Shown here piece after piece: positions 42,399 through 64,000 of a DNA stretch of 64,000 nucleotides (positions are counted from its first letter, which is position 1; each line of letters opens with the position of its first letter). Source of the DNA: an uncultured Bacillota bacterium (GTDB lineage Bacteria > Sysuimicrobiota > Sysuimicrobiia > Sysuimicrobiales > Segetimicrobiaceae); NCBI GenBank assembly GCA_963804645.1, contig CAWDRG010000022.1, positions 32,001-96,000 of the forward strand. The letters run 5' to 3'. The notes under the pieces were generated by a model. That model had not been told where the DNA came from and did not search any database. It worked only from the letters and a program-made list of their open reading frames with translations. A program made the translations under genes and the position numbers.

Positions 42399-42517
42399 GA
42401 CTTTGTCCCCCTTTCGCAGAGTACATTTGCCTCATCTTGCGGTGGATCATGGCCTGCTCGCGGTTCACGGTGGCAGACGCGCCGCCTCTGAAAGCATCTC
42501 AGTGGAGAGACTCACCA

Positions 42518-48317: not shown

Positions 48318-49374
48318 CGAAAGCACAGCTCCACAGCGAGCTGAGCGTGAAATGGGGCTGACAGTACGAGACGTAGACGCGCCGTCCGCCGTCCGCGGCA
48401 AACTGCGGATGCTCGAACCCGAGGTAGACGAGCTCGCTCGTCGACCGGTGTGGCACGCGGCCGAGCGACTGCGGGGGAGAGTACGGACCCGTGATCCGCG
48501 GAGCCAGGCGGACGATCAGCTCCTTCGTGTAGCTGTCGATGTACACCATCAGGTAGCCGCCGAGGTAGCGGTTGTGCGAGACCGAGTAGTTGCTGCCCGC
48601 GAGGCCCACGCCGCCGGCCTGCGTCAGGTCGGCGGTCCAGCCGTCGGACTCATCCTGCCGGAACACGTACGCGGACGGGTCCCCGAGGCGCGCCGCCGGG
48701 GCGCGCGCGACGATGCCCCGCACGACGTGCTCGCGGCGCACGCTGCCGAACACGTAGACGTCGTCCCCCTCACGGATCGTCTGCACGCCGAGATGGAAAT
48801 CGTCCGCGGCCATGCGCCACAGGCGCCACTCCCCGTCGCGCCGCACGCGCCGGCACGCGCCCGAGGCGGGATCGAGCGCGGCGATCCCCACCCCGAGGTT
48901 GCGGAACCCCCATGGGGTCGTGGGATCGATCGTCTGCACCCCCAGATAGTAGAGGTACACCGTGCCGTCGACCAGGATCCCGTGCTCGGGCCAGAAGCGG
49001 ATCCGCGCGGCCCGCTCCTCCGGCGTCGGGGTCAGGATCTCGACCGGGCACCCGTCGGCGTCGTGATAGAAGCGCATCTCCGCGAACGCCTCGCGCGCGC
49101 CGCGCCCGGTGGACGTCGCGGCGCAGTTCGCGAGGAAGACGCACGGCTCGTCGGTCGCCAGCTGAAACGGCGGGCGGGCCCCTTCGCGGGCGCCGGCGTC
49201 GTTCGGGACCGCGAGCAGCGTGTCGGAGAACACGAACAGGGTCCGGTCGCCGAGGTCGATCGACTGCCCCCCGTCCTGCCCGATCATCGCCCACGACGCC
49301 GCCCGCGCGCGGTGGCAGTACCCCAGCGGGCGCGTAAAGCGCACGGGCACGCGCGGATCAGCCGCGTCGATCAC
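48314..49374 (-). CDS. DUF4185-like (putative beta-propeller glycosidase-like) protein; frameshift near the 3' end
   Basis: IGQDGG, LFVFSDT, FWPEHG, YVFGS, SVSHNRYLG.YL, GPYS, HP. A 1-nt shift near 48335 gives ...VELCFR*. Confidence 0.65.
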
Positions 49375-49995
49375 TGCCGCCTCAAGATCGCGAGGGTGTC
49401 CACGGTCCCGAGGTGGTCCCAGGCGCCCTCGGCGCGCGCGCGCTGCAGCACGTGATACGGCGCCTGCCCGCCGTCCGCGGGGTCCGGGTGGATGTCGTGG
49501 ATGCAGAGGTACCCGCCGGGCTTGATCGCTGGCGCCCACGTCTCGTAATCGCCGAACGCGTCCGCCTCCGAGTGGCCGCCGTCGATGAACACCAGGCTGA
49601 GAGTCGCGGGCGGCCAGTACCGTCCCAGCCTGACGGAGGCGGCCACGATCGGGATCACCCAGTCCTGCAGGCCCGCCAGCCGGATGTTGCGCCGCAGGGC
49701 CTGGAGCGTGGTCGTGACGCCTTCTGCGGCGTCGTACAGGTCGGGGTCAAAGTACGGCTGCCCCGGCTGCTGCTCGGCCGACCCCTCGTGATGATCCACG
49801 GTAAACAGCGGATAGCGACCGCGCTCCCGGCACCCCTCGCCGAGGAACAGCGCCGACTCGGCCGCAGTACGAGCCGATCTCCAGGCACGGACCGGACCCG
49901 GAGATCTCCACCGCCAGCCGGTAGAGCGACATCCCCTCCGCCTCCGCGAGGAATCCCTTCGCGCGCATCGCGATGCTGCGGACCTCTTCCCGCAC
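49371..49995 (-). CDS. class I SAM-dependent methyltransferase (Methyltransf_24-like), frameshifted near 49857
   Basis: KGFL..EG, LEIGSYCGR|S, VDHHEGS.EQQPG, FIDGGH, IHD. Confidence 0.85.
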
Positions 49996-49999
49996 GCGC

Positions 50000-50834
50000 C
50001 TATCCCTCCTCCGGGCGTTCCCACGTCTCGGTCCGCCGGTTTGCGAGCTCCGTCCACGCCTGCCGGATGCGCAGGTCGTACTGCCAGTGGGCGCCGTGGT
50101 GCGGCCCGCGATAGAGGACCAGCCGGCGCGGCCCGCGCACCCGCGCGTACAGCGTCTTGGCCGCGTCGACCGGGATCGCCTCGTCGTCCTCCGAGTGGAG
50201 CACCAGCACCGGTCCCCCGCACCCGGCGATCCGCTCCAGCGAGTTCATCCGCGTGCGGCAGAAGGGGCGGACCGGGAGATACGGAAACGCGCGCGCCGCG
50301 AGGTCCGGCACCGAGGTGAACCCGCTGTGGACGACGAGCCCCCCGCACGCGTGGCGCGCGGCGAGGTAGATGGCCACGGCACTTCCGAGCGACTGTCCGA
50401 AGATGATGATCTGGTCCGGACGCACCCCGCGCGCGCCCGTGGCATACGCCCACGCGGCGTCGGCCGCCTCATACGTGCCCTGCTCGCTCGTGCGCCCGCC
50501 GTCGCCGTACCCGGGATATTCCACGAGCAGGACGCCGACCGACAGCGCGGACAGGAAGCACGCCACCGGCAGCTCGTGGGTGATGTTCCCGTCGCTGCCG
50601 TGGAAGAAGATGACCACCGGCCGGCCCTCGGCGGCCGGGATCCACCAGCCCCGCACGTCGCGGCCGCCGGCGCACGGCAGGCGCACGTCCTCGTACGGCG
50701 ATCCCGTAGTCGGCCGGGGAGCGGTTCAGCATCGGGCCGGGGCGAAAGATCAGGGCGTTCTGCCGAACGTACAGCCGGCCCAGGAACACGAGGGCGACGG
50801 CCACACCGAGGAGCAGCGGGATCGCGAGGTACAT
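50000..50834 (-). CDS. membrane-anchored alpha/beta hydrolase, frameshifted near 50700
   Basis: N-terminal TM plus LIFRP, FFHG, YPGYG.S, GQSLG nucleophile, HS.DDE.IP, C-terminal His. Confidence 0.85.
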
Positions 50835-50843
50835 CCCGCCGCG

Positions 50844-52124
50844 CTACGACGAAGCCGCCCCGACGACCAGCGCCGCGTTCTTGACGCCGCGGTCGCTGGT
50901 CCAGACCACGCTGCGGCGGTACGACCGCCGCTCCGGTCGCTCGAGAAAGTACAGGGCGCAGTGGGGATCCGGATCCGCGCAGTTCGCGAGCGCCGGCACC
51001 ACCTGCTGCTCCATCCCCATGGCCGCGTGCACCAAGGAGAAGATGCCGCTCGCGGCGCCGGTGAACCCGGTGCCGCTGGTGGCCGCCGTGAACGGCGGCG
51101 CCGCATCCGGCCACAGCCCCCGAACGGCGTCCGCTTCGCGCAGGTCGTCGAGCTCGATCGCGAGGCCGTCCCCGAAGATCGCCCCGACCTCGGCCGGCGC
51201 GCACGCCGCGATGTCGAGCGCCCGCGCGGTCGCGTACCGCAGGGCGGTCGAGTCCCGGCCGCGGTCGCGCTGCAGGAGGGCCACGTCGGTCGTGGCGGCG
51301 TACGACAGCAGCTCGGCGTAGGCGCGGGCGCCGCGGGCCCGGGCGTGCGCGTCCGATTCCAGCATGACGAACGCGGCGCCCTCTCCGAGGACATACCCGC
51401 CGCGAGACCGGTCGAAGGGCCGGCACGCGTGCGCCGGATCCTCGTAGAGCGTCGAGAGCCGTCCGGCGATCAAGTGCTCGGCCAGGCTGTCCATGCCCAG
51501 CAGCGTGTCGTACCCGCCCGCCACGGCGCAGTCCGCCTCCCCGCGCTGAATTGCGGCCATCGCCAGCCCCACCGCCATCAGGCCGGAGGTGTACCCGTTG
51601 GTCAGGTTCGTATTGGGCCCCAGCACCTGGTGCTCGACGGAGATGCCACAGGTGCCGGCGTTCGGCAGCGCCCGCACGAGGAACAGGGGATCGAGCAGCT
51701 TCATGCCCCGCTTGGCGAACAGCGAGATGTCGAAGTCGTTCGTCGGCGTCAGCGACGCGCGCAGCGGCGGCACGAACACGTCGGGGTCGATTTCGAGCGA
51801 CAGCGAGCCCACGTAGAGCCCACAGCCCTCGAGCGCGGGCGCCCCTTTGAGCCCGGCGTCGGCGATCGCCTCCCCGGCCGCCCCGACGGCGTACCCCGCA
51901 CTCGGCGACAGCAGCTTGCGCAGCATGCGGTTCGCGATCAGCGCCGACCGCTCGAACCCGTCGACCCGCGCCTCCATCTGCGGGGTGGGGCTCTCGAAGT
52001 CCGGGGCGAGGGCGAGCCGCACGGCCGAGCGGCCGTCCATCCACGCCTCGAAGTGCGACCGGCTCCGCGTCCCGAGCGGCGAGACCGCGCCCACGCCGGT
52101 GATCAGCACCCGGGGCTGACTCAT
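50844..52124 (-). CDS. ketosynthase-like protein lacking the catalytic triad (chain-length-factor-like)
   Basis: ITGVGAVSPLG, RPFD...LGEGA. Cys site reads TNGYTSG; His sites read FGDG and GFT. Confidence 0.88.
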   Translation of the reverse strand: MSQPRVLITGVGAVSPLGTRSRSHFEAWMDGRSAVRLALAPDFESPTPQMEARVDGFERSALIANRMLRKLLSPSAGYAVGAAGEAIADAGLKGAPALEGCGLYVGSLSLEIDPDVFVPPLRASLTPTNDFDISLFAKRGMKLLDPLFLVRALPNAGTCGISVEHQVLGPNTNLTNGYTSGLMAVGLAMAAIQRGEADCAVAGGYDTLLGMDSLAEHLIAGRLSTLYEDPAHACRPFDRSRGGYVLGEGAAFVMLESDAHARARGARAYAELLSYAATTDVALLQRDRGRDSTALRYATARALDIAACAPAEVGAIFGDGLAIELDDLREADAVRGLWPDAAPPFTAATSGTGFTGAASGIFSLVHAAMGMEQQVVPALANCADPDPHCALYFLERPERRSYRRSVVWTSDRGVKNAALVVGAASS

Positions 52125-52591
52125 CCCGCCGCGTCCGCGGGCGGCGTCCACCCGCCGCTTTGGTAGTCGAAGCGGTCCCGGTTGTTCTTGATCTTCGCGG
52201 GGTCCGCGGTGGCTTCGTGCGCGTACACCATGCGCTCGACCGTCGCGACGCGCACGTCCTCGACCCACGCCTCGGCCCGCATCGTCGCCCCGTACGGATG
52301 GTCGTACAGCATCTGCACCTCGAGCGTGAGCGCCTCGCCCTGCCGCACCTGACGGTGCAGCCGGACGCCGTCCACCAGCATCAACACCATCTCCACCTCA
52401 AAGTTGTGGTTCAGCAGATTCAGCATGCCGCCCACCTGCGCCAGCGCCTCGAGCAGCAGCGAGGCGGGCATCACGGCCAGCCGCGGGTAGTGCGCGACGA
52501 AGTAGCCGTCCATCAGATTGACGAGCTTCGTCGCCCGCATGCGCTTCCCGCGCTCGGCGTCGATGATCCGGTCGAACAACAGGAAGCGCAC
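52121..52591 (-). CDS. FabZ/FabA-type dehydratase
   Basis: MRFLLFDRI, HYP..VMPASLLLEALAQ hotdog motif. Confidence 0.85.
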   Translation of the reverse strand: MRFLLFDRIIDAERGKRMRATKLVNLMDGYFVAHYPRLAVMPASLLLEALAQVGGMLNLLNHNFEVEMVLMLVDGVRLHRQVRQGEALTLEVQMLYDHPYGATMRAEAWVEDVRVATVERMVYAHEATADPAKIKNNRDRFDYQSGGWTPPADAAG

Positions 52592-52611
52592 GGGATCTCC
52601 TCGCGGCCGCG

Positions 52612-53898
52612 TCAGTCCGGCCAGCGTGTGACGATCAGCGTACCGTTCTGCCCGCCGAACCCGAAGGAGTTGGACAGCGCCGTGTGCGGCTCCACGCGCC
52701 GTGCTTCATTGGGCACGTAGTCCAGGTCGCAGTCCGGGTCCGGATGCTCCAGATTGATCGTCGGCGGCACGATGCCGGTCGACAGCGCCAGCACCGTGAC
52801 CACCAACTCGATCCCGCCCGAGGCGCACAGGAGATGCCCGATCTGCGACTTGGTCGAGCTCATCGGCACCCGGTACGCGTGGTCGCCGAGCGTCTGCTTC
52901 ACCGCGAGGGTCTCCACCCGGTCATTCTGGAGCGTCGCCGTGCCGTGCGCGTTGATGTAGTCAACCTCCTCGGGCGCGATCCCGGCGTCCGCGAGCGCCG
53001 CGCGCATGCACTGGATCGCGCCCCGCCCGTCCGGGTGGCTGTCGGTGAACCGATACCCGTCGCACGACGAGCCGTACCCGACGAGCTCCGCGTGGATCCG
53101 CGCGCCGCGGCGCTGCGCGTGCGACAGCTCCTCCAAGATCACCAACCCGGCCCCTTCGCCGAGCACGAGCCCATCGCGCTTCCGGTCGAACGGACGGCAC
53201 GCCTTCGCCGGATCCCCCTGGAAGGGGGACGCGACGCTCAGCAGGGTGAACCCCGTCACGCACACCGCCGACAGCATGCTGTCGGCGCCCCCGGCGACCA
53301 TCAGGTCGGTGTCGCCGCGGCGGATCATGTGCAGCGCCTCGCCGATCGCCTGCGTGGCCGACGCGCACGCCGACTGGACGGTCATGCACGGGCCGTGCAG
53401 CAGATGCCGCCCCGCCAGCAGCGTCGACACCATGCCGATGTCGCGCTGGGCCAGGAGCTCGGGCATCTTGCGGCAGATCGCCAGGTACTGCTCCTTGTAC
53501 GACCCCTCGTGCAGCGCCTCGGTGGGCCACGAATACGCGCCCTCGTCGATCACCGGAAAGTTCGACGCGCCGACAATCAGGCCCGCGCGCCAGGGGTCAT
53601 ACTCCGTCTCGCCGAGCCCGGCGTCGCGCCACGCTTCGTCGAGCGCCCACACCCCGAGCTTCACGGAGCGGGTCGCGAACGGTCGCAGCACGTCCCCAAC
53701 GTCGGGAATCGTGAGCTGCTCCAGGTCGACCTCGCTCCCGATGTGCACGGGAAAATCGTCGCTCTTGAACTGCCGGATCTGCCCCACCCCGGACTTGCCC
53801 GCCAGGATGGCGTCCCAGTTCCGCTCGACCCCGGCGCCGAGCGAGGTCACGGCGCCCATGCCGGTAATCACCACGCGGCGCGCCGCCGCCTCCGTCAT
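52612..53898 (-). CDS. beta-ketoacyl-ACP synthase (FabF-type, intact Cys-His-His)
   Basis: SACAS, NAHGTAT, STKSQIGHL, SNSFGFGG. Confidence 0.95.
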   Translation of the reverse strand: MTEAAARRVVITGMGAVTSLGAGVERNWDAILAGKSGVGQIRQFKSDDFPVHIGSEVDLEQLTIPDVGDVLRPFATRSVKLGVWALDEAWRDAGLGETEYDPWRAGLIVGASNFPVIDEGAYSWPTEALHEGSYKEQYLAICRKMPELLAQRDIGMVSTLLAGRHLLHGPCMTVQSACASATQAIGEALHMIRRGDTDLMVAGGADSMLSAVCVTGFTLLSVASPFQGDPAKACRPFDRKRDGLVLGEGAGLVILEELSHAQRRGARIHAELVGYGSSCDGYRFTDSHPDGRGAIQCMRAALADAGIAPEEVDYINAHGTATLQNDRVETLAVKQTLGDHAYRVPMSSTKSQIGHLLCASGGIELVVTVLALSTGIVPPTINLEHPDPDCDLDYVPNEARRVEPHTALSNSFGFGGQNGTLIVTRWPD

Positions 53899-54353
53899 GG
53901 CGCCTCCTCCGTCCGGTCGGGATACAGCAGGAGAAACATCCGGCGCGCCTCGGCGGGATCGAGGTACCGCTCGATCGGTTCAAGCGACAGGGTAAAGGTG
54001 GCCGACGCCACCAGCGTGTCCAGATGGTAGGCCTTCCCCTGCACCTTGACCTCGGCCTCGCCGCGCTCCACGACCTTCACCTCCACCCGGAGCTGGCTCC
54101 CGGGGCCGAGCACGCGCCGGAACTTGAGGTTGTCGAACGAGGTCGCCAGCCCAAGCTGGCGAAACTCACTGGCCTGCCGCACGACCCAGTCGGCGAGCTG
54201 CACCATCGACTCGACGATCATCGACCCGGGCATGATCGGCCGGTGGGGAAAATGATCGGCGAAAAAATCCTCGCTCATCGTGATGTTCTTGACCCCCGTC
54301 GCGCGCACGCCCGGCTCCAGCTCGAGGATCGAGTCGACGAGCAGGAACCTCAT
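53895..54353 (-). CDS. FabZ-type 3-hydroxyacyl-ACP dehydratase
   Basis: FLLVD, KN.T..E.FF..HFP..PIMPG..IVESMVQ. Confidence 0.92.
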   Translation of the reverse strand: MRFLLVDSILELEPGVRATGVKNITMSEDFFADHFPHRPIMPGSMIVESMVQLADWVVRQASEFRQLGLATSFDNLKFRRVLGPGSQLRVEVKVVERGEAEVKVQGKAYHLDTLVASATFTLSLEPIERYLDPAEARRMFLLLYPDRTEEAP

Positions 54354-54940
54354 GACTCCGCCTGTGACTGCTTGAACAGCTCGGTCAAGTCGCGGAGCAG
54401 GATATCGTCCCCGCTCTCGAGCGGCACGATCTCCCCGCAGCTCGGACATTCCAGCTCCGGCATCACGGTCGACTCGACGAGCGCGGCGCCGCACTTCGGG
54501 CAGTCGCGCGGGGCCTCCGCCTTCGCCTCCAAGAGCCGCACGGTGATCCGTGCGAAGCTGCCCACGCTGATCATCTTGACGACGTCGATCGCCTTCAGCC
54601 CGGGCCGGAACTTGGTGGGATCCAACTCGGGCATGCCCCGGCGCAGCATCTCCAGCCCGAGCGGCGTGACCACGCCCGAGACCACGAGGTCCTCCTCGCG
54701 GAAATGCTGGGCGGCGCGCTCGAGGATGTCGGCGCGCGGGAACTGAATCCGGTACTCCTTCTCCAGCAGAAACGCCATGTCGAGCAGGTCGAGCGACTCG
54801 GCCCCGAGATCGAACAGCGACGACTCAAGCGTCACGTCGTCGAGCTTGAGCTCGAGCGACTTCGCCACGACCTCGCGGACCTTCTGGTGCACCTCCGCAA
54901 CCGGCACTGCCGGGTGCGCGCGCTGCTCATCCGGACCCAT
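54350..54940 (-). CDS. extended acyl carrier protein with C-terminal zinc ribbon
   Basis: DLGAESLDLLD Ppant site, long internal insertion, CPKC-x13-CPSC; GAGGAGG RBS. Confidence 0.88.
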   Translation of the reverse strand: MGPDEQRAHPAVPVAEVHQKVREVVAKSLELKLDDVTLESSLFDLGAESLDLLDMAFLLEKEYRIQFPRADILERAAQHFREEDLVVSGVVTPLGLEMLRRGMPELDPTKFRPGLKAIDVVKMISVGSFARITVRLLEAKAEAPRDCPKCGAALVESTVMPELECPSCGEIVPLESGDDILLRDLTELFKQSQAES

Positions 54941-54961
54941 CGTTCCTCCTCGCCTGCTGAA

Positions 54962-54985
54962 CTGACCGCACTGCTGACCGCACTG
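54962..54985 (+). repeat. perfect 12-bp tandem repeat (CTGACCGCACTG x2)
   Basis: Read directly in the fabG-ACP intergenic region. Confidence 0.8.
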
Positions 54986-54988
54986 GGG

Positions 54989-55747
54989 TCACAACCCGTA
55001 CCCGCCGGTCACGTGCAGAATCTGTCCGGTGATGTAGCTCGCCTCGTCCGAGGCGAGAAAACACACGGCGCGGGCCACGTCCGCCGGCTCGCCGAATCGC
55101 TTGAGCGGGATCTGGCCGAGGATCTCGTCCCCGGCGAGCGTGCGGACCCGCTCCGACATCTCCGTGAGGATCACCCCCGGCGAGACGGCGTTGACGCGCA
55201 CCGCCTTCGGGGCCAGCTCCACCGCGAGCGAGCGCACCATCGCGTTCAGCCCGCCCTTGGCGGCCACGTAGTTCCCGTGACCGCGCCCCGCGCGGTCGGC
55301 CGCGATGGACGACAGGCACACGATGCTCCCGCCCTGCTGGCGCATCATGAACGGCAGCACCTCCCGAATGCACAGAAACGGCCCCCGGAGATTCGTCTGG
55401 ATCACGGCGTCCCACTGGTCGAGCGTCATCGCCCCGATCAGCTGGTCGCGGACGACCCCCGCGTTGGCCACCAGCACGTCGATGCGGCCGAACCGCTTGG
55501 CCGCGGCGCGCACGAGTCCCCGCACGCCCGCCTCGTCGGCGACGTCGGCCTGGACCGCGCACGCCTCGCCCCCGCCCGCCTGGATCGCGGCGACAACCGC
55601 GTCGGCGTCGGCCGCCGCCTGGCGGTAGTTCACCACGACGCGGGCGCCCTCGGCGGCCAGCTGGGTGGCGACGGCGCGGCCGATGCCGCGCGACGCGCCG
55701 GTGACGATCGCCACCCGCTCGCGGAACCGCGCCCCCGGGTCAGCCAC
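54989..55747 (-). CDS. 3-oxoacyl-ACP reductase (FabG-type)
   Basis: TGASRGIG, NAG..RD, NYVAAK, VNAVSPG.I.TEM. Confidence 0.93.
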   Translation of the reverse strand: MADPGARFRERVAIVTGASRGIGRAVATQLAAEGARVVVNYRQAAADADAVVAAIQAGGGEACAVQADVADEAGVRGLVRAAAKRFGRIDVLVANAGVVRDQLIGAMTLDQWDAVIQTNLRGPFLCIREVLPFMMRQQGGSIVCLSSIAADRAGRGHGNYVAAKGGLNAMVRSLAVELAPKAVRVNAVSPGVILTEMSERVRTLAGDEILGQIPLKRFGEPADVARAVCFLASDEASYITGQILHVTGGYGL

Positions 55748-56507
55748 GGTGCGAGAGGGCCAGTGAATAGCCCCCGTCGGCGATCAGCGTTTGTCCCCGG
55801 ATCCAGTCCGACTCCGGGGAACACAGGAACGCGACGACGCCGGCCACGTCCGCCGGGGTGGCGAGGCGCCCGGCGGGCGTGCCCGCGACGACGTGCCGCA
55901 CCAGCTCGTCGTAGTCCGGCGCGAGGCGCATGCTCTCGGTGTCGACAAACCCGGCGGACACGACGTTGACGTTGATCTTCCGCGGCGCGAGCTCCACCGC
56001 GAGGTACCGGGCCAGCGTCTCGATGACGGCCTTGGCGGCCCCCAAGCCCGCATAGTCGGGCACGCAGAACCTCGACCCGAGGCTGCTGAGCCCGATGATC
56101 CGGCCGCCGTTCGGGCCCATCAGCTCGGCCGCCATCTGCGAGCCGAGCAGAAAGGCGCGCGCGTTCATGTCCATCACCTTCTGCCAGTTCCGGCTGTTCA
56201 GCTCCATCGCCGGCCGGAAGGTCGTCCGGGCCGCGTTGCTGATGAAGATGTCGAGGCGTTCGAACCGCTCCCGGACGTGGTCGAACAACCCGCGCAGCAG
56301 CGTCTCCTGTCCGACGTCCAAGGACTGCATCGAGGCCGGCACGCCCATCGCTTCGATGTCGGCGACGGTCTGCCGCGCCGAGGTGTAATCCATGCAGTAG
56401 CCGACGAGGATGTGGGCCGGCTGCTCCCGCGCCAGCCGGAGGGCGATCGCCCGGCCGATCCCGCGCGTGCCCCCGGTGATGAGCACGATCTGTCCCCCGA
56501 GCGCCAT
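55740..56507 (-). CDS. enoyl-ACP reductase, FabL-like SDR
   Basis: TGGTRGIG, SNAA, SSLGS, YAGLGAAK (Yx6K spacing), RYLAVEL, WIRGQT. Confidence 0.85.
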   Translation of the reverse strand: MALGGQIVLITGGTRGIGRAIALRLAREQPAHILVGYCMDYTSARQTVADIEAMGVPASMQSLDVGQETLLRGLFDHVRERFERLDIFISNAARTTFRPAMELNSRNWQKVMDMNARAFLLGSQMAAELMGPNGGRIIGLSSLGSRFCVPDYAGLGAAKAVIETLARYLAVELAPRKINVNVVSAGFVDTESMRLAPDYDELVRHVVAGTPAGRLATPADVAGVVAFLCSPESDWIRGQTLIADGGYSLALSHRG

Positions 56508-56508
56508 C

Positions 56509-57576
56509 TCACGCCACCTCGCGAACAGGGCGGTAGACCTCGTCGACGAGCCGGCGGGCCAGCCGAACCGGGTCGTGCCGGAGGGCCACGTACGCCGGAC
56601 CGCGCCGGCGCAGCTCCCGGCGGAGCGCCGGCGCGCCCAGGATCTCGTGGATCGCCTCGCACCACACCCGGGGATCGCGCGAACGGACGAGGCGGCCGCC
56701 CGACCCCGGCCCCACGGCCTCCACGAGGCCGCCCACGGCCGCGGCCAGCACCGGCGCGCCGACCCGCATCGCTTCGAGGGCCACGATCCCGAACGGCTCA
56801 TACTCGCTCGGGATCAGCACGAGCCCCGCGCCCGAGAACAGCCGGTCCAGCGTCTCCCGGTCCACCCACCCGACGACGCGGCAGGCCTCCGGATGCGCCG
56901 CGGCCAGACCGTCCGCGATGCGGTGCCCGAGCGCGTCGCCGTGTCCGCCCGCCACGACGAATCGGTACCGGCCCGCGAGGCGGCGCACGATCACGTCCAA
57001 GAGCGCCATCCCCTTGCTGCGCGCGAAGCGGCCGGCAAACACGACCGGGCCCGGCTCCTCCGGCGCGGGCCCCGCGGGCGGCAGGGCGGCCACCCCGTTT
57101 GGCAGCACGCTGCTGCGCCCCGCGAGCGACGGGAGGCGGTCGAGCGCGGCCGTGCGCTCGTCCGCGCTGAGGAAGACGACGTGGTCGCTCCGCGTCATGA
57201 GCGCGACCTGCAGCCGCCGCCAGCCCTCCGCCTCGGGGACGCCCGGCAGCTCCCGCTCGAGCAGGGAATGCGCGGTGTAGACGAGCGGCACGCGAAAGCG
57301 GCGCCGCATCTCCAGCGCGAGCTCGCCCAGGCTGAGCGAGTGCAGATGGATCACGTCGAACTCGGCCGGCCGCACCGGACAGCGGTCCCCGGACAGCCCG
57401 TGGACCACCGGACCGCGCCCCGCCGGCGCCGCGGCGGGGCCGTCCGCCCGCGCGGGGGCCAGCACGTGCACGTCCACGCCGACCGCGGTCAGCGCGGCCG
57501 CCTGCGCCGCCACGGCCGTCCCGATGCCGGACCAGACGGGCTCGGGATAGTCGGCGGTCAGCATCAAGGCGCGCAC
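56509..57576 (-). CDS. glycosyltransferase family 4
   Basis: DYP...SGIG, YTAH, LPNG, FAGRF..SKG, YEPFGIVALEAM. Confidence 0.92.
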   Translation of the reverse strand: MRALMLTADYPEPVWSGIGTAVAAQAAALTAVGVDVHVLAPARADGPAAAPAGRGPVVHGLSGDRCPVRPAEFDVIHLHSLSLGELALEMRRRFRVPLVYTAHSLLERELPGVPEAEGWRRLQVALMTRSDHVVFLSADERTAALDRLPSLAGRSSVLPNGVAALPPAGPAPEEPGPVVFAGRFARSKGMALLDVIVRRLAGRYRFVVAGGHGDALGHRIADGLAAAHPEACRVVGWVDRETLDRLFSGAGLVLIPSEYEPFGIVALEAMRVGAPVLAAAVGGLVEAVGPGSGGRLVRSRDPRVWCEAIHEILGAPALRRELRRRGPAYVALRHDPVRLARRLVDEVYRPVREVA

Positions 57577-57580: not shown

Positions 57581-59503
57581 TCACCTCGGCCCCGCGTCCG
57601 GTGTCCGGGCGAGGACCGTCAGTTGGTCGGAGTCTCCTCCGCCGAGCTGCCGCATCAGCCGCATCCAGCGCGGCGACATCTCGTCCGGAAGCGCCGGGAC
57701 CCGCAGCCGCTCGGGCGCGTCGAAGCCCGCGCTCGTCAGGAGCGTCGAGAGCGACGTCTCGGTGAAGTACTGTAAATGCACCAACGGATTGATCGCCTCC
57801 CAATGCTTGCCGAGAACCTTGAAGTGCATCGACCCCAGATCCGGAACCGCCACGTACAGCAGGCCGCCCGGGTTCAGCACGTCGGCGACCTGCTCGAGCG
57901 CCGCCCGCGGGTCCGGCAGGTGCTCCAGGACGTGGCTCATGACCACCACGTCGAACGCCTGCCATGGGATCGGATCGCGCCCCACGACGGCGCGCGCGAC
58001 GCGGTCGCCGAACTCGAGCGTGAGGCGGTCCACCTGGGCCTGCGAGCTGTCGACGCCGTACACCTCAAAGCCGTACGCCGGCGCGACGCGCATCAGGTAG
58101 CCGCGGCCGAAGCCGAGATCCAGGAGACGCGCGCCGGACGTCCGCAGCGACAGCCAGTGGCAGATGAACTCGGCGTACATGCGCTGCGCTTCCAGGTACC
58201 GGTCGTCGGCCGCGCTGGGATCGTCCTCGAGCAGCCGGGCCTGCACCTCACCGCTGATACGCGGGCTGACGTACACGTGGCTGCACGCCGCGCACCGGTG
58301 GTAGGCGAAGCCTTGCTTCTGGAACAGCGGCCGCCGTTCCCGCGACCCGCAGGCGCCGCACGCCACGGACACGAGGGCCGCGGGCCCCGCCTCTTCGACC
58401 ACCTGCTGCAGCTCGGAGAACCAGAAGAGGCGCGCCGGCGGCGCCGGCGGAGGCGCCGCGTCGACCGCGGGCTCGACGAACAGGCCGAGGCGGTACGCGA
58501 TCTCGCAGGACTCGGAGAGTTTGGACAGCGCGACCCCGCGCTCCAGCGCGGGCAGCGCCTCGGCCATCGCCCCGAGGTCCAGGAACGTCTCCGCGATGCG
58601 GCGCTCGACCCCGACGGGCACGCGCCGCAGCGGGGCCAGCTCGGTCGCCGCGCGGTCGTCCCCCCGCGCGCGGTCCCCGTTGAGCCGGCTGAGCGACACC
58701 AGGTTCGGCTGTCCCTCCCGCAGATCTTCTTCCTGATCCTGCACGTCGTTCAGGTACTGGGCCAGCTCGAAGTACCGCTCCAAGAACGGCAGCAGCGCCG
58801 ACGTGCGACCCGGATCGAGCGCCGAGTACAGCGCCCGCAGGGACTCGACGTTCTTGAGGCGCACGAGCCGGTCGTACTCTTCCAGCGACCACTCGTGGAG
58901 ATCGGTGTACTCGATGATCGCCCCGATCACCGTGCGGCGCAGCGACCCGACCAGGGCGCGCAGGGTCGCGCCCCCGTCCGCGCCGGCCGGGTCGGCGAGC
59001 CGGTCGAGGCCCTCGAAACACAGCAGCAGTCCCGCCAGAATGCTCAGGCCCACCGCCTGCTGGGTCGTGGGCCGCGCCTCGCTCACCGCCGCCAGCAGCG
59101 TGTCGTGCCGTCCCTTGTACGACACGTGCTGGTCGATGATGTCGTCGAACACCCGCGTAATCGCGATGTGGACGAGCCCGCACGCCGCGACCGCGCGGCG
59201 AAACGCGTCCGGCGCGGGCCGCACGGCGACCGCGAACACCGGCAGATCCCAAAGGGACCACTGCATCCAGCTCACGTACTCCGACGCCTGCGCCGCCAGC
59301 TGCACCGCGACCGCGTTCTGCTCGGAGATGCGGGCCACGTCGTCGCGCATGCGCGCCAGCGCCTCGTCGATCCCGAGGCTGATCTCGGCGCGGTACGCCT
59401 CGATCTCGGCGCGATACTCGGCGAGGAACGCCTCCGCGGCGGCCCGGCTCGCCTCGCGGAGGGTCGAGACGCGCACGAGCAGCTCCTGATGGGTCGCGGT
59501 CAC
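57581..59503 (-). CDS. class I isoprenoid-synthase-fold domain fused to a zinc-binding class I SAM methyltransferase
   Basis: DDIID and NDVQDQEED metal motifs in a helical N-domain; CGAC/CAAC, LDLGFGRG, MSHVLEH, LNPGG, HLQYF in the C-domain. Confidence 0.75.
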   Translation of the reverse strand: MTATHQELLVRVSTLREASRAAAEAFLAEYRAEIEAYRAEISLGIDEALARMRDDVARISEQNAVAVQLAAQASEYVSWMQWSLWDLPVFAVAVRPAPDAFRRAVAACGLVHIAITRVFDDIIDQHVSYKGRHDTLLAAVSEARPTTQQAVGLSILAGLLLCFEGLDRLADPAGADGGATLRALVGSLRRTVIGAIIEYTDLHEWSLEEYDRLVRLKNVESLRALYSALDPGRTSALLPFLERYFELAQYLNDVQDQEEDLREGQPNLVSLSRLNGDRARGDDRAATELAPLRRVPVGVERRIAETFLDLGAMAEALPALERGVALSKLSESCEIAYRLGLFVEPAVDAAPPPAPPARLFWFSELQQVVEEAGPAALVSVACGACGSRERRPLFQKQGFAYHRCAACSHVYVSPRISGEVQARLLEDDPSAADDRYLEAQRMYAEFICHWLSLRTSGARLLDLGFGRGYLMRVAPAYGFEVYGVDSSQAQVDRLTLEFGDRVARAVVGRDPIPWQAFDVVVMSHVLEHLPDPRAALEQVADVLNPGGLLYVAVPDLGSMHFKVLGKHWEAINPLVHLQYFTETSLSTLLTSAGFDAPERLRVPALPDEMSPRWMRLMRQLGGGDSDQLTVLARTPDAGPR

Positions 59504-60606
59504 GCGCCGCCCCCGCGCGCCCGGCACTCGTCCCGGGCCAGAAACGCGACGGAGAGGGCCGCGGCCCAGGCGGGCGACCCGACTCCTTTGACCGCGAAGT
59601 CCTCGTACGGCCGCTCGGCCCCCGGTTCCAAGCCGCGCAGCACCGCGAGCCGCGCCTGACGCAGCGCCGGACCGACCTCGCCGAGATACTGCAGCGCCGT
59701 CGCGCCGAGCGCGGTGCTGAGCGGGCCCCCAAACTCGCCGGTCGGGCGCTGCAGGCCGCCCAGCAGCGGGAGCAGCCGCTCCGCCACCTCGCGCCGGTGC
59801 GGCAGATCGCCTTGGGCCCACGTGCGGCCGACCGCGTAGAAAAAATACAGCGGGTCGGGAAACAGCGATGTGCCGTGCTGCAGGGTCCCGTCGGCCGTGT
59901 GCTCCCACAGCCACGCCGCCAGCCACGCGGTCTGCGGCTGGTCCCGCAGCCCCGCGCGGCACAGGTAGCGCAGCACCTCCACGTTGACGACCCGGTCAAA
60001 CCCGACGATCGGCCGCCCGACTTCGTCGGTCCACCCGTACAGGCCGCGGCCGCGCCGCACGAACGTATAGTACGCGCCGGAGGCGGACCGGAAGCTTTGA
60101 ACGACCGCGAGCTGCCGCTCCCAGCGCTCCAGCTGCTGCGCCCCGTAACTCTCGAGCAGCGCCGCGGCCGCAGACGCCGTGGTGGCGACGTCGGGATCGA
60201 TCCCCGCTCCGCGCCCGAAAAAGCGCCAGTCGCCGGCGGCCTCCTGCTGCCACGCCAGAAACTGGCGGATGCGGCGGCGCGCGTCGACCACGGCGCGCAT
60301 CGCCCCCTCGCGCGCCCGCGGCGGAAACACATCGAGGCTGCCGTCGACCCATCCCGGCGACCACGGGTCGAACGGCGAGAGCGCGTCGTGGACGAACGCG
60401 GACACGAACGGACTGCGGCACTGCACGTAGCGTCCGTCCGGATCCCGGCGGTACGACAGGATTTCCCCGGACGGGTGCTGGCTCCACAGAATCATCCGGA
60501 GGGTGCGCAGCACGCGCTCGCCGAGCACCCGCCGCGCCGGAGACTCCTCGGCCGCCGCGCCGCCGGCGCCCCAGGGCATCAGGGCCTGCGGGGTCAACGC
60601 CGTCAT
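59500..60606 (-). CDS. prenyltransferase/squalene-cyclase-type alpha/alpha barrel protein
   Basis: QW-like repeats (SQHPSG, FLAWQQEAAGDWRFF, LQRPTGEFG), DPDVATT at the DxDD position, D.VVN..VL.YL. Confidence 0.7.
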   Translation of the reverse strand: MTALTPQALMPWGAGGAAAEESPARRVLGERVLRTLRMILWSQHPSGEILSYRRDPDGRYVQCRSPFVSAFVHDALSPFDPWSPGWVDGSLDVFPPRAREGAMRAVVDARRRIRQFLAWQQEAAGDWRFFGRGAGIDPDVATTASAAAALLESYGAQQLERWERQLAVVQSFRSASGAYYTFVRRGRGLYGWTDEVGRPIVGFDRVVNVEVLRYLCRAGLRDQPQTAWLAAWLWEHTADGTLQHGTSLFPDPLYFFYAVGRTWAQGDLPHRREVAERLLPLLGGLQRPTGEFGGPLSTALGATALQYLGEVGPALRQARLAVLRGLEPGAERPYEDFAVKGVGSPAWAAALSVAFLARDECRARGGGA

Positions 60607-62324
60607 GCGTCGGTCCGCTCGACCATGAGGGCGAGAAACTTGCTGAGGTTCGTGGTGCGCCACTCCCGCCACGCATCCTCGACGTGGCGCGCGACGTCGC
60701 CGCGCAGTTCGGCGGGGACCGGACGCTCCCCGTTGAGCTCCCGGGGGGCGGCGTCGTAGACCGTGTCGGCGAGCACCCCGCGGGCGCCGCGGGGCCAGGC
60801 GGGCAGCCGTTCGACCACGGCGCGGTAAGCGCCGACGAAGCGGTCGTACGAGTCGCACAGCGCCGGGAACCCTCCGTCGGAGGTCCCGTCTACCACACGC
60901 TCGAGCGCGCGTTCGGCCGCGACCAAGCCGACCTCGACATCCGAGATCGGCGGCGTGGCGAGATCCGCCAGCGGGACGATCCCCCGTCGGGCCAACACCT
61001 GCCGCATGCCCGCCGCGACGTCGTCGAGCGGCGCCTCATCGCTGAAGTAGTAGCTGGCCGCGCTCGGCACGCGCCAGTCTTCGAGGCCCGGGGCCGCCAG
61101 CACAAGCGTCGTGCAGCCGAGCGTCGGCGCCGCGTGGGCGGTGAACGAGTCGGCGCAGATCACGGCGTGCGCCTCTTCCAGCTCCGCGAAGACGCCATCG
61201 AGCGGGAGTCCCCGCGCCTCGCCGGCGGCGGCGACCTCGAAGCGCGCGGCGAGTCCCGGGTGCCGGCCCGCGGCGGCGCGCGCCACGTCCGACGCAAACC
61301 GCCGGGTCGTCAGGTTGGGGCCCGGGTCCAGCACGACCCGGACCGGTCGGCCCGCGTCCGCCGGCACCACGGCGGCGACGAGCTGGCTCCAGTAGCGGGG
61401 CGACGGGTCGTACTTCGACGTAAAGGGGGACACGTAAATCCGCAGGATCGCCGGATCCGGGACCGCCCGCCGCGCGACAGCGGTCAACAGGTCCGCGGTC
61501 GCGGGTGACACGCCGAGCCCGCGCGCGAGCCGGGCGAACCCATGGTAGTAGTTCCCGAACGCCGGGGCCGTCTCGGCGACCCGGTGGATCCACCGGCGGC
61601 GGTTGTCCACGGCGACCATCACGTGAGCGCCGATCGACAGTTCCACGTAGCGCGGGATCCGCTCCTCGCGCGCGACGGCCTGGTGCAGCTCGGGATTCTC
61701 AAAATCGATCAGCGCCACCAGGTCGAACGCGCCGAGGGCGCTCTCGCCGCGCATCGCGTGCAGCAGGCTCAGATACTCGTGATACCGCTCGACGCGGTCG
61801 ACCCCCGCGACCCGGTTCCACAGCCCCTCGTACGCCGAGAGCACCGTGATCTCCGCGCCGGGCACGGCCGCCTTGATCCAGCGCGGAAGCGGGAACGTCA
61901 TGATCTCGTCGCCGATCCCGATCGCCGGCCCGAGCACCAGGAGCATCCGGCGGGCGTCCCGCAGAAAGTCGGGCGGCGGCGCGGCGTCCCCCGCGATGTA
62001 GCCGCGCGGGAATGTGGTCTGCACCAGCGGCGCCAGCGTCTGCTGCAGCCGTTCGGCGGTCTCGGGCAGGTTCCCGGGGTTCATGCTCCGCAGCAGCCGC
62101 GCGGTCATCGCCGCGCGCGGATGCGCCGCGGCCTCGAACACCCCCGCGAGCGACTGCAGCCCGTCGATCCGCCGCAGGACATAGTGGGTGTTGCTGCGGC
62201 TGATCGGGCGCCGCGTGAGAAAGAACAGGTACCGCGACACCACGAGCGCCGGCAGCAGCAGCGCCGGATCCCACGGAGCCTCGGCGCGCGCGCGAAGCGC
62301 GCTGGCGGGGATCACCACCCTCAC
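60603..62324 (-). CDS. GT9 (heptosyltransferase-like) domain protein with extensions
   Basis: GIGDEI and ICADSFTAHAA motifs, equivalent to GT9 IGD and DSG..H.A. Confidence 0.65.
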   Translation of the reverse strand: MRVVIPASALRARAEAPWDPALLLPALVVSRYLFFLTRRPISRSNTHYVLRRIDGLQSLAGVFEAAAHPRAAMTARLLRSMNPGNLPETAERLQQTLAPLVQTTFPRGYIAGDAAPPPDFLRDARRMLLVLGPAIGIGDEIMTFPLPRWIKAAVPGAEITVLSAYEGLWNRVAGVDRVERYHEYLSLLHAMRGESALGAFDLVALIDFENPELHQAVAREERIPRYVELSIGAHVMVAVDNRRRWIHRVAETAPAFGNYYHGFARLARGLGVSPATADLLTAVARRAVPDPAILRIYVSPFTSKYDPSPRYWSQLVAAVVPADAGRPVRVVLDPGPNLTTRRFASDVARAAAGRHPGLAARFEVAAAGEARGLPLDGVFAELEEAHAVICADSFTAHAAPTLGCTTLVLAAPGLEDWRVPSAASYYFSDEAPLDDVAAGMRQVLARRGIVPLADLATPPISDVEVGLVAAERALERVVDGTSDGGFPALCDSYDRFVGAYRAVVERLPAWPRGARGVLADTVYDAAPRELNGERPVPAELRGDVARHVEDAWREWRTTNLSKFLALMVERTDA

Positions 62325-63100
62325 ACCGGGCTCAGCGAGGTCACGAGCCAGCGCTTGTCCCGCTGCGGCTTGAAGACGGCGATGCGGCGCTCCATGATCG
62401 TCCGCCGCGCTCCGTCGGCGGGATGTTCGGCGTCGATCATCAGCTCCGTGTAGACCAGGATAGCGTCGGGGTAGAGAATCGGCTGCGGCATCTCCACAAG
62501 CGACGCCTCGAACCGCCAGCCCCGCAGCGACTCCAGCAGGCGCTTGAACTGCCAGGCGAGGCCGTCACGATCGATCTCGCGGTCGTCCTCCAAGGCGTGG
62601 TAGTCGGGCGCCACGCACGCCATCGCCGACTCCACGTCGCCGCGGCCGATCGCGTGCACCAGATCGTACAGACACCCGACCACCGCCTCGGCGTCGGTGT
62701 CCAGCATCTCCTCCTCGGGTTCCGCCAGCAGCACGCGCAGACTGATGCGCCGGCCGGGCGCCTCGGGCGCGACCGCCGTCGGCGCCGCGTGCCCGACGGA
62801 GGACGGTGAGAGGTACGCGGGCTCGCCGATCGGCGCCGGCGCCAGGCGCTCGATCCCGGCCGCGGGGTCGCCGGGCGCCTCGAAGAAACTGTCCCACGGG
62901 TTCGCCCCGCGGGGCGCCGGCCGGAACCACATGCTGAGGCGGTCGGTGGCGCTGAGCCGCCCGCCGAGCGGCGCCGGGGACAGGTACGACTCCTGCCAGG
63001 GCGACAGGGTGTCGCCCCCGCGGCCCAGTTCGGCGAGCACGCGGTGCAGCAAGACGATCGCCTCGTCCAGCCGAGCGTCCACGGACCGTCCCACCGCCAT
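62321..63100 (-). CDS. protein with C-terminal NTF2/SnoaL-like domain
   Basis: AIGRGDVESAMACVAPDY...IDRDG...W pattern; low-complexity N-terminal half. Confidence 0.65.
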   Translation of the reverse strand: MAVGRSVDARLDEAIVLLHRVLAELGRGGDTLSPWQESYLSPAPLGGRLSATDRLSMWFRPAPRGANPWDSFFEAPGDPAAGIERLAPAPIGEPAYLSPSSVGHAAPTAVAPEAPGRRISLRVLLAEPEEEMLDTDAEAVVGCLYDLVHAIGRGDVESAMACVAPDYHALEDDREIDRDGLAWQFKRLLESLRGWRFEASLVEMPQPILYPDAILVYTELMIDAEHPADGARRTIMERRIAVFKPQRDKRWLVTSLSPV

Positions 63101-63142
63101 CACCCGCCTCCCCTGGGGATTTCGTGCCGCCGCACCTCGGGC

Positions 63143-64000
63143 CTAGCGACTCCGCTGCATCAGATACTTGGACAACCGTACAAATCGGTATTTCGCCGCC
63201 GTCTCAGGAAGCTCCGCGAGGTACTGCACCGCCTCGTCGATCAGGCTGTTCGCCGTCTGCTCGGCCCGTTCCCGGGCGCGCGTCCGCCGAAACAGTTCGT
63301 GGACCCAGGCAACCTCATCCGGAGTCGTCTCCTGCCGCGCCCGGTTGAGGATCGCGAACATGCGTCCCCGCTCCGCCGCGGCGGAGCGCTCCGACGCGTA
63401 CGCAACCATCAAGGTGCGCTTCCCCTCCAGCACGTCCGAGCCGAGCGGCCGGCCCTTCCCGCCGACGACATCCAGGGCGTCGTCCTTGATCTGAAACGCC
63501 ACCCCGGCCTGCAGCGCGAAAGCTCGGAGACGCTGGAGGTCTCGCGCGTCGGCGCCGCCGATGATGCCCCCGCCCACGGCCGCCATCGCGAAGAACGCCC
63601 CCGTCTTCTTGCGCGCGCACTCGACGTAATCCTCCGGCGTCGGCGCGTCGTTGCGGCGCAGATTGATGTCCAGCCCCTGCCCCTCGGTCACCAGGAGGCC
63701 GAGCTCCGACAGCACCTGGAACAGCGCCACTTTGGTCTGCGCGGAGTACGCGCCCTCGAGAATCGCGAGCGAGCTGAGCGGAATGAACGCGTCGCCGATG
63801 TTGATGGCGTGGGCCACGCCGAACCGCTGCCACGCCGAGGGGCGTCCCCGGCGCTCGCCGTCGCCGTCGGCGATGTCGTCGTGAATCAGGCTGAAGTTCT
63901 GCAGATGCTCGATCGCCGCGGCAAAGTGCAGCGCCGGGCGGTACGACCCGCAAAACATCTCGCACGTAGTCGCGCACAGCGCCGCCCGGACGCGCTTCCC
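63143..64000 (-). CDS. polyprenyl (probably GGPP) synthase, 5' end outside the window
   Basis: GKRVR at the window edge, FSLIHDDIAD.D..RRG, GQGLD, KT, FQIKDD.LD, EGK. Confidence 0.95.
   Translation of the reverse strand, partial: GKRVRAALCATTCEMFCGSYRPALHFAAAIEHLQNFSLIHDDIADGDGERRGRPSAWQRFGVAHAINIGDAFIPLSSLAILEGAYSAQTKVALFQVLSELGLLVTEGQGLDINLRRNDAPTPEDYVECARKKTGAFFAMAAVGGGIIGGADARDLQRLRAFALQAGVAFQIKDDALDVVGGKGRPLGSDVLEGKRTLMVAYASERSAAAERGRMFAILNRARQETTPDEVAWVHELFRRTRARERAEQTANSLIDEAVQYLAELPETAAKYRFVRLSKYLMQRSR

Follow-up and report, generated by a model that had tools for sequence, protein, structure and literature searches.

Isoprenyl diphosphate synthases (IDSs) bind the allylic diphosphate and its Mg ions through both Asp motifs, the first Arg residue of the RRG motif and the KT Lys; isopentenyl diphosphate (IPP) is bound by GKRxR, the His preceding the first Asp-rich motif (FARM), the second Arg residue of RRG and the GQ Gln. 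Methylation by S-adenosylmethionine (SAM) coupled to class I ionisation is represented by two pairs, geranyl diphosphate (GPP) methyltransferase with 2-methylisoborneol synthase and farnesyl diphosphate (FPP) methyltransferase with sodorifen synthase, in which the two activities reside on separate genes and the terpene synthases are canonical. Both IDS-fold enzymes that no longer elongate and methylation coupled to terpene synthesis are already known. Fungal IDS-like terpene synthases carry NDxxSxxxD/E at the second Asp-rich motif (SARM) and have no coupling activity (PMC7484799), and Ord1 is an all-alpha prenyltransferase that prenylates indole without elongation or condensation with IPP (PMC12510300). 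The protein described here is encoded on contig CAWDRG010000022.1 of an uncultured Bacillota bacterium (assembly GCA_963804645.1), between positions 32,001 and 96,000 of the forward strand; these 64,000 nucleotides are referred to as the window, and coordinates are counted from its first letter. In contrast to the GPP and FPP methyltransferase pairs, a single polypeptide joins an IDS-like helical domain (N-domain) to a methyltransferase preceded by a Cys4 ribbon. The preferred reading, with a probability of about 0.4, is that the N-domain is a non-elongating class I-type enzyme that would ionise a prenyl diphosphate, coupled to methylation, in a terpenoid-glycolipid pathway. The domain is read as non-elongating because the allylic-diphosphate machinery appears to be kept and the basic IPP site to be replaced by a Trp-rich segment.

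The fusion gene constitutes a single uninterrupted reading frame of 640 residues, which is also open further upstream, to 59962. GTG at 59503 is the likely start codon because homologues begin there and because it overlaps the TGA of the upstream gene, which encodes a toroid protein, as GTGA. Searching with residues 1–400 recovered 65 proteins, nearly all of 620–667 residues and with the same methyltransferase half; about 60 full-length homologues share the fusion architecture. Three of the 65 have no methyltransferase domain and, given their contigs of 1.5–2.6 kb, are therefore probably cut proteins. Relatives are labelled in databases as "SAM-dependent methyltransferase" or "class 1 isoprenoid biosynthesis enzyme". 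A first-pass annotation of the sequence had described a helical domain, two Asp motifs, a Pro/Ala linker, a Cys4 site and a methyltransferase, and each of these was located where it had been placed. The features of the protein are as follows.

57581–59503, minus strand: fusion gene (P0001), GTG start at 59503, TGA stop at 57581–57583, 640 amino acids plus stop.
58469–59503, minus strand: N-domain, residues 1–345, with a divergent trans-IDS fold (AlphaFold2 model, Foldseek and VIA structure scan).
59327–59497, minus strand: long single N-terminal helix, residues 3–59 (DSSP on the model).
59240–59278, minus strand: Trp-rich segment YVSWMQWSLWDLP, residues 76–88, placed by spacing roughly at the position of the IDS GKRxR.
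59099–59155, minus strand: first Asp-rich motif with its extension, RVFDDIIDQHVSYKGRHDT, residues 117–135 (invariant columns; hhalign).
58910–58924, minus strand: GAIIE, residues 194–198, putative counterpart of the IDS GQxxD region (hhalign, weak, E 1.2e-3).
58847–58876, minus strand: YDRLVRLKNV, residues 210–219, with K217-N218 as putative counterpart of the IDS KT (hhalign).
58700–58762, minus strand: second metal-binding motif, AQYLNDVQDQEEDLREGQPNL, residues 248–268, NDxxDxxxD at the SARM position followed by GQPN.
58424–58477, minus strand: Pro/Ala-rich linker VEPAVDAAPPPAPPARLF, residues 343–360 (sequence; low predicted local distance difference test (pLDDT) score at 341–360).
58283–58360, minus strand: Cys4 zinc ribbon, C382, C385, C404 and C407 (CGAC at 382, CAAC at 404), invariant in 43 homologues.
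57719–58144, minus strand: class I SAM methyltransferase core, residues 454–595 (Methyltransf_23, PF13489, E 8.1e-26).

The AlphaFold2 model of the N-domain, built with 45 sequences, is all helical (pLDDT 89, predicted template modelling score 0.81). Foldseek returned 29 PDB matches at E <= 1e-3, and those listed are all trans-IDSs (E 2.4e-5 to 1e-3). VIA, a structure scan independent of Foldseek of which the best 50 of 48,161 chains were considered, agrees with this assignment. Its best match is the geranylgeranyl diphosphate synthase (GGPPS) 3qqv, with Z 22.9 and a root-mean-square deviation (rmsd) of 3.0 Å over 299 aligned residues, and ranks 1–40 are all IDS-fold proteins with Z 14–23. The modelled N-domain thus takes the isoprenoid synthase fold with high confidence, and the absence of this fold, which the first-pass annotation had named as a refutation of its reading, is not observed. 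The likeness to trans-IDSs (PF00348; 3qqv, FPP synthase and Rv0562) extends over 270–300 aligned residues with Z 20–23 and an rmsd of ~3 Å. The matching helix ends in DDxxD, the second motif occupies the SARM position, and the RRG and KT positions have Lys residues. The terpene-synthase fold that the first-pass annotation had named does not appear to be the nearest one, as the chain-elongating trans-IDSs at Z 20–23 are closer than the best class I cyclase, LrdC (6oh6), whose Z of 13.1 falls in a range that the tool describes as common for helical bundles. Kinship with squalene/phytoene synthases, suspected from an NxxxDxxED motif, was dropped as no such chain occurs among the best 50 VIA chains or the listed Foldseek matches, an absence that is no proof. 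Sequence profiles give no assignment: Pfam finds only noise on residues 1–400 even at E <= 10, without PF00348, and NCBIfam matches are confined to the methyltransferase half. The N-terminal helix runs for 57 uninterrupted residues and the family profile weakly matches apolipoprotein A-I helices or repeats (E 9e-4 to 0.06); this helix could be amphipathic and lipid-facing, or the match could be merely compositional.

A profile of the N-domain searched against 1.84 billion cluster representatives recovered 175 proteins at E <= 1e-3, including stand-alone relatives of ~310–340 residues whose homology to the N-domain spans 310 columns (hhalign E 1.6e-53). This small family is marked by the signature RxxDDxxDxHxxYKG ... 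QxxNDxxDxxxDxxxGQPN. In the target a script located DDIID at residues 120–124 and NDVQDQEED at 252–260, followed by G264-Q265-P266-N267. An alignment of 43 homologues (41–58% identical) shows no variation at D121, D253, D260, P266, N267 or any of the four Cys, and conservation of 90% or above at D120, D124, H126, Y129, K217, N218, N252 and D256. Across the family alignments the first motif is invariant at R117, D120, D121, D124, H126 and Y129; similarly Y210, K217, N218, V219 and G194 are invariant and E198 is invariant or nearly so. In the target-family alignment (A2) the invariant positions of the second motif are Q249, N252, D253, D256, D260, Q265, P266 and N267, and those of the Trp-rich segment are Y76, W79, W82, W85, D86 and P88. 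The equivalents of R117, D120, D121, D124, H126, N252, D253 and D260 are also invariant in 44 distant stand-alone relatives (17–42% identical to one another), whose invariant columns comprise R, DDxxD, H, E, Y, K, Q, ND and D. Since they are conserved in both the 43 fused homologues and the 44 distant stand-alone relatives, the Asp-rich motifs are, on the alignments, not a product of chance.

The first motif, D120-D121-I-I-D124, conforms to the DDx2-4D of IDSs. The second, N252-D253-V-Q-D256, departs from DDxxD by an Asn that never varies among the fused and stand-alone relatives. Residues 1–345 contain none of the strings RRG, KT and GKR, and their sole GQ, G264-Q265, is not at the region III position. 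Four stand-alone relatives match the Pfam polyprenyl_synt family (E 2.5e-6 to 2.3e-3; 17.6–27.3 bits, one of them at 27.3 against a cut-off of 27), and hhalign aligns the stand-alone relatives with five polyprenyl synthases at E 1.2e-3 and a probability of 19%. This alignment pairs DDxxD with FARM, YKG with RRG, GAxxE with GQxxD, YxxxxxxK with YxxxxxKT, and QxxNDxxD with FQxxDDxxD; the same pairing appears in a non-significant hhalign alignment (A4). Counted from the first FARM Asp, RRG, GQ, KT and SARM lie at +9, +66, +91 and +132 in a polyprenyl synthase, and their putative counterparts in the target at +10, +74, +97 and +132. Thus, the loss of RRG, GQ and KT noted by the first-pass annotation holds for the literal strings, but degenerate counterparts (Y129-K130-G131, G194..E198 and K217-N218) appear at matching positions by the weak profile alignment and spacing. 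By the same spacing GKRxR falls on the invariant W79-x-Q-W82-x-x-W85-D-L-P, and F119 stands in place of the IDS His before FARM. These correspondences suggest that the allylic-diphosphate/Mg site is kept and the IPP site lost, and that the true loss in the N-domain is of its basic IPP site. The target thus differs from trans-IDSs in having no significant sequence similarity to them, an NDxxD at the SARM, apparently replaced IPP-site residues and a fused methyltransferase.

These features bear directly on whether the N-domain is a true elongating synthase whose homoallylic partner is unusual, such as an IPP methylated by the fused methyltransferase. Elongating IDSs are the best structural matches, IPP methyltransferases are known, and a fused SAM methyltransferase would be consistent with a methyl-IPP route. 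In contrast, no basic IPP-site string is present, with W79xQWxxWD for GKRxR, F119 for His, YKG for RRG and GA for GQ; Asn takes the place of the first SARM Asp in every member, and the operon already includes a separate, genuine polyprenyl synthase. Elongation is therefore considered highly improbable, the least probable of the four explanations set out here.

An Asn-led triad on an IDS fold is shared with the IDS-like terpene synthases of fungi and insects (e.g. the Melampsora enzymes; PMC7484799). The enzymes of this type are still recognisable GGPPS homologues with PF00348, whereas the target, a bacterial protein fused to a methyltransferase, has diverged much further and has Asp for Ser. 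Class I terpene synthases carry (N/D)Dxx(S/T)xxxE, to be compared with NDxxDxxxD in the target, where DDIID is also present.

The same fold and the same retained allylic-site motifs would also suit an intermolecular prenyltransferase, in which the Trp-rich former IPP site holds a non-IPP acceptor (a sugar, a glycolipid or an acyl intermediate) and the methyltransferase modifies the acceptor or the product. The invariant Trp residues are clustered, as is typical of sugar or aromatic binding sites, and Ord1 (9v4g, Z 18.9) and MoeN5 (5b02, Z 15.6) are among the VIA matches. Together with ComQ, these enzymes resemble the preferred reading of the target in that an IDS fold serves the transfer or processing of a prenyl diphosphate and no condensation with IPP takes place. 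In contrast, they have no detectable sequence relation to the target, and their acceptors, respectively indole, a phosphoglycolipid and a peptide Trp, have no evident counterpart at this locus. No methyltransferase fusion of Ord1, MoeN5 or ComQ was found in the literature. The elongating IDS structures outscore Ord1 and MoeN5, an acceptor cannot be named, and NDxxDxxxD at the SARM is the kind of change seen in IDS-like terpene synthases (PMC7484799). Transfer to such an acceptor is the main rival of the preferred reading and somewhat less probable than it.

In the second half of the fusion protein the match to Methyltransf_23 reaches 91.1 bits against a cut-off of 27, and only methyltransferase families are found there by Pfam. 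The fold is Rossmann-like and motif I, of the GxGxG kind, reads LLDLGFGRG (459–467). The model of the METHYLTRANSFERASE half, residues 356–640, has a pLDDT of 92 and beta hairpins at the Cys4 region, and the PDB sequence matches listed for the fusion protein are all methyltransferases. The linker that precedes it (343–360) is variable and gapped in the homologue alignment. The top Foldseek matches are MtmC (4rv9), KijD1 (5t6b) and TcaB9 (4e2w), with E 1.8e-13 to 6e-12, TMq 0.56–0.65 and ~300 aligned columns; generic small-molecule methyltransferases follow closely, the E-values of the C3-methyltransferases being only slightly better. As in the Zn-ribbon nucleoside diphosphate (NDP)-sugar C3-methyltransferases, an N-terminal Cys4 ribbon precedes a class I methyltransferase core. 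In contrast, MtmC, KijD1 and TcaB9 have 403–419 residues (about 400–420) with a 120-residue C-terminal substrate domain, whereas the target half has 285 residues (TMt ~0.45) and ends ~45 residues past the core, without a substrate-binding domain of that kind. It is therefore not a member of the NDP-sugar C3-methyltransferase family. GPP, FPP and IPP methyltransferases are absent from the 42 or 60 PDB sequence matches listed and from the Foldseek matches listed, an absence that proves nothing. The first-pass proposal that a Cys4 SAM methyltransferase acts on the prenyl substrate or product stands as to the enzyme class and not as to the acceptor; the nearest structural matches are sugar C3-methyltransferases whose C-terminal domain is missing here.

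This missing domain gives room to another explanation, that the N-domain is a non-catalytic binding or scaffold module presenting a diphosphate or lipid substrate, such as a polyprenyl- or nucleotide-diphosphate-linked sugar, to the methyltransferase and the glycosyltransferases. The methyltransferase resembles MtmC, KijD1 and TcaB9 (TMq 0.59–0.65) minus their sugar-nucleotide-binding C-domain, a role that another domain could serve, and glycosyltransferase-like proteins are constant neighbours. Non-catalytic IDS-fold subunits do exist, and VIA recovers both a heptaprenyl diphosphate synthase heterodimer entry (Z 14.5) and a GPP synthase small subunit (Z 14.4), but the non-catalytic small subunits known have lost the Asp-rich motifs. 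In the present family the metal motifs and the flanking Lys, His and Tyr are invariant in fused and stand-alone relatives at 17–58% identity, which is the pattern of a catalytic site, and the stand-alone relatives have no fused methyltransferase to serve. A purely presenting role is accordingly regarded as distinctly improbable.

The gene neighbourhood ties the IDS-like family to isoprenoid metabolism. Read along the minus strand, a polyprenyl synthetase gene is followed by the SnoaL-like, GT9-like, toroid and fusion genes and then by a glycosyltransferase family 4 (GT4) gene. Start/stop overlaps of 4 nt chain the SnoaL-like, GT9-like, toroid and fusion genes in succession, and 4 nt separate the fusion-gene stop from the GT4 start. 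The neighbouring features in the window are listed below.

63143–64000, minus strand: genuine polyprenyl synthetase, running past the window end (Pfam E 3.1e-48).
62321–63103, minus strand: 260-residue protein with a weak SnoaL_2 (NTF2-like) match (Pfam E 0.0025, below cut-off).
60603–62324, minus strand: GT9-like protein of 573 residues, without a Pfam match (ESM Atlas neighbours are Glyco_transf_9).
59500–60603, minus strand: single alpha/alpha-toroid protein of ~367 residues, ATG at 60603, resembling the beta domain of class II terpene cyclases.
56509–57576, minus strand: GT4 glycosyltransferase (Pfam).
45718–56801, minus strand: type II fatty acid synthase/polyketide synthase (FAS/PKS)-like set (Pfam, NCBIfam), found in 15–24 of 27 related loci depending on the gene.
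31999–43585, minus strand: lower-GC island with a mevalonate-pathway set (composition, Pfam).

The polyprenyl synthase at 63143–64000 is closest in NCBIfam to short-chain IdsA/GGPPS-like models, all below cut-offs. It reads FSLIHDDIAD, with an aromatic residue five positions before FARM and no insertion, a pattern that, under the chain-length rules we assume to hold, suggests a short-chain (C15–C20) product. The island has a GC content of 57–64% against about 70% around it and includes HMG-CoA reductase, two GHMP kinases, diphosphomevalonate decarboxylase, an ArsA-like ATPase, a geranylgeranyl-reductase-like flavoprotein, a HEAT-repeat protein and a second polyprenyl synthetase; HMG-CoA synthase was not found within 31999–43585. 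The island, which may have been acquired horizontally, is an isoprenoid precursor supply adjoining the cluster. The FAS-like set comprises a FabL-like enoyl reductase, FabG, an acyl carrier protein (ACP) with a Zn ribbon, two FabZ-like dehydratases, a ketosynthase (KS), a chain length factor (CLF)-like KS, an alpha/beta hydrolase, a Methyltransf_24 protein and a DUF4185+AMP-binding protein; downstream of the fusion gene there is also a GT28-type glycosyltransferase. The ACP (54350–54940, minus strand) has its PP-binding region at residues 19–74 and a C-terminal CxxC...CxxC extension resembling a zinc ribbon (weak Zn_ribbon_3/DZR), present in 20 of the 27 loci. The 1273-residue protein at 45718–49539 (minus strand) joins DUF4185 (81–392) to an AMP-binding adenylation domain (541–784), while the DUF4185 proteins of acidobacterial loci are separate genes.

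Twenty-seven related loci, in metagenome-assembled genomes (MAGs) labelled Acidobacteriota, Chloroflexota, Myxococcota, Actinomycetota, Calditrichaceae and Firmicutes, were compared by tblastn of the neighbouring genes, some of the loci being cut by contig ends. The GT9-like protein is the most constant neighbour of the family.

GT9-like protein: 26 of 27 loci.
SnoaL-like protein: 25 of 27 loci.
GT4: 25 of 27 loci.
AMP-binding protein: 24 of 27 loci.
Toroid: 21 of 27 loci.
CLF-like KS: 21 of 27 loci.
ACP with Zn ribbon: 20 of 27 loci.
FabL-like enoyl reductase: 19 of 27 loci.
KS: 18 of 27 loci.
Orthologous polyprenyl synthase: 3 of 27 loci.

Acidobacterial loci additionally hold a carbamoyltransferase, a phosphopantetheinyl transferase and further DUF4185 proteins. 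At 15742–17265 of locus L002, from an Ardenticatenaceae MAG, a Tn5-type transposase gene is inserted between the FabG and ACP genes of the orthologous cluster.

A second type of fusion is formed by nine N-domain relatives of 612–653 residues, in which the IDS-like domain is followed by a C-terminal toroid. Three of the nine give weak SQHop_cyclase_C matches, and their toroid carries D-(V/L)-D-D-T, a class II cyclase motif. As Rosetta-stone proteins, these fusions tie the IDS-like domain to the toroid encoded upstream in the window. Three genomic loci of this type (L030–L032) come from Thermomicrobiales, Planctomycetota and Myxococcota MAGs. A separate class I methyltransferase gene lies beside the fusion in L030 and L031 (Pfam), whereas L032 gives only a short tblastn match to a methyltransferase there (E 3e-4). 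All three have a homologue of the 573-residue GT9-like protein (23–28% identity, E 1e-11 to 1e-17) and a polyprenyl synthase 51–55% identical to that of the window, whose orthologues in L001, L003, L027 and L030–L032 together span 51–67% identity. One of the three has IspH and another a geranylgeranyl-reductase-like flavoprotein together with a GT4 enzyme. Stand-alone relatives are present in cultured Actinomadura strains. In Actinomadura sp. CNU-125 (L033) the stand-alone member, named "class 1 isoprenoid biosynthesis enzyme" by NCBI, lies between a 561-residue Pfam GT9 protein and a GT4-like protein, with a radical SAM gene upstream. Thus, the methyltransferase-fused, toroid-fused and stand-alone forms all adjoin a GT9-like protein. 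The constant core therefore consists of the IDS-like domain and the GT9-like protein, joined in most loci by GT4, and the methyltransferase, toroid, polyprenyl synthase and FAS-like line are lineage-specific additions. Prenyl transfer to an intermolecular acceptor gains from this arrangement, as a GT9-like protein stands beside all three forms and GT4 is present in 25 of the 27 loci, in L032 and in L033, and such constant neighbours suggest a sugar-bearing acceptor. Among metagenome proteins, P0135 (521 residues) joins the IDS-like domain to DUF4254 (residues 359–496, E 2.2e-29). P0084 (841 residues) and P0089 (478 residues) look like joins of GT9-like or toroid sequence to the IDS-like domain, on short metagenome contigs; they may be gene-calling artefacts and were not used as evidence.

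The toroid of the window has ESM Atlas neighbours carrying SQHop_cyclase_C or AstC-like_C. Its family profile matches squalene-hopene cyclase on a QW-type segment (E 1.8e-5) and drimenol synthase chains weakly (E 0.1). DxDTT is present in six of 19 neighbour toroids, both Asp are kept (DxDxT) in three more, and DxN(S/T)T occurs in four; the window and L001 have DVATT, and only the first Asp is invariant across the 19. The HAD-TCbeta drimenol synthases (DxDTT) likewise consist of a single beta-domain class II cyclase fused to a second domain (PMC9128629, PMC12365925). In contrast, their partner is a HAD phosphatase, whereas here it is an IDS-like domain, and the window toroid reads DVATT without the second Asp. 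The fusions to a DxDDT toroid, together with the upstream toroid gene in 21 of the 27 loci, link the family to class II cyclase-like proteins. A complex prediction for the N-domain with the toroid scored 0.00, which counts neither for nor against binding.

From the observed fold, motif conservation, architecture and neighbourhood, a substrate, a chemistry, an order of steps, a methyl acceptor and a final product can be proposed under the preferred reading of a non-elongating, ionising N-domain. This domain would descend from trans-IDSs. DDxxD, the NDxxDxxxD triad, Lys130 as the RRG counterpart and Lys217 as the KT counterpart would bind an allylic diphosphate via Mg2+ and ionise it. The substrate would be a short-chain (C15–C20) prenyl diphosphate from the polyprenyl synthase at the operon head, fed by the mevalonate genes; the upstream toroid may bind or cyclise this substrate beforehand. 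Quenching of the cation, intramolecular or by water, would give a terpene scaffold or alcohol, and methylation by the Zn-ribbon SAM enzyme would fall on either the substrate or the product of the ionisation step. Glycosylation of the scaffold by the GT9-like and GT4 proteins would follow and, in this lineage, acylation through the FAS-like set and the acyl-AMP ligase, resulting in a methylated terpenoid glycolipid. The cluster, conserved across several bacterial phyla, probably makes a sugar-bearing terpenoid lipid.

Several observations weigh against this reading. The link from the target to IDSs is structural, and its sequence support is weak and transitive: phmmer and profile searches against PDB sequences recovered no IDS, only methyltransferases or apolipoprotein-like matches to the first helix, and hhalign against polyprenyl synthases gave E 0.37 for alignment A4 (five synthases) and nothing for A2. 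The residue equivalences are likewise weak, as they come from the alignment of 19% probability and from spacing, not from three-dimensional superposition. The predicted triad of the target has Asp at the positions that are Ser/Thr and Glu in terpene synthases. Among the matches listed the methyltransferase seems to have no special likeness to prenyl-diphosphate methyltransferases. With DVATT, the window toroid is without the middle Asp of DxDD/DxDTT, which makes class II cyclisation here doubtful; the class II general acid is seemingly missing and the protein may not be a protonating cyclase. At least three loci (L004, L007 and L019) leave no room for a toroid gene, and a dedicated polyprenyl synthase lies within 10 kb in only three of the 27. 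The most constant neighbours are two glycosyltransferase-like proteins, which an intermolecular acceptor would fit equally well. Readings other than the four discussed retain a small share of the probability.

An IDS-like/methyltransferase fusion, a fusion of an IDS-like domain to a class II beta domain, or a cluster of this type was not found in the literature, subscription journals being outside the coverage. Tentatively, and at somewhat less than even odds, the proteins may constitute an undescribed modular family of IDS-derived, non-elongating class I terpenoid enzymes, spread over bacterial phyla, whose members either stand alone or have a Zn-ribbon methyltransferase or a class II beta domain as fusion partner. 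Together with the GT9-like protein and mostly GT4, this family would define a hitherto unrecognised terpenoid-glycoside pathway which here, joined by the FAS-like set, would lead to a methylated terpenoid glycolipid in Acidobacteriota, Chloroflexota, Myxococcota, Actinomycetota and relatives. Non-canonical terpene enzymes are hard to find because sequence profiles miss them, and no Pfam model exists for the IDS-like family. If the assignment is correct, it would add a bacterial branch of IDS-derived terpene synthases or prenyltransferases, and the toroid-fused form would represent an alpha-beta terpene synthase whose alpha domain is of the IDS type. The methyltransferase-fused form would be a new coupling of methylation to prenyl-diphosphate chemistry in a single polypeptide. 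The stand-alone relatives occur in cultured Actinomadura, and the family is therefore open to experiment; it would also offer a handle on a conserved cluster of ~15 genes in abundant, mostly uncultured soil phyla.

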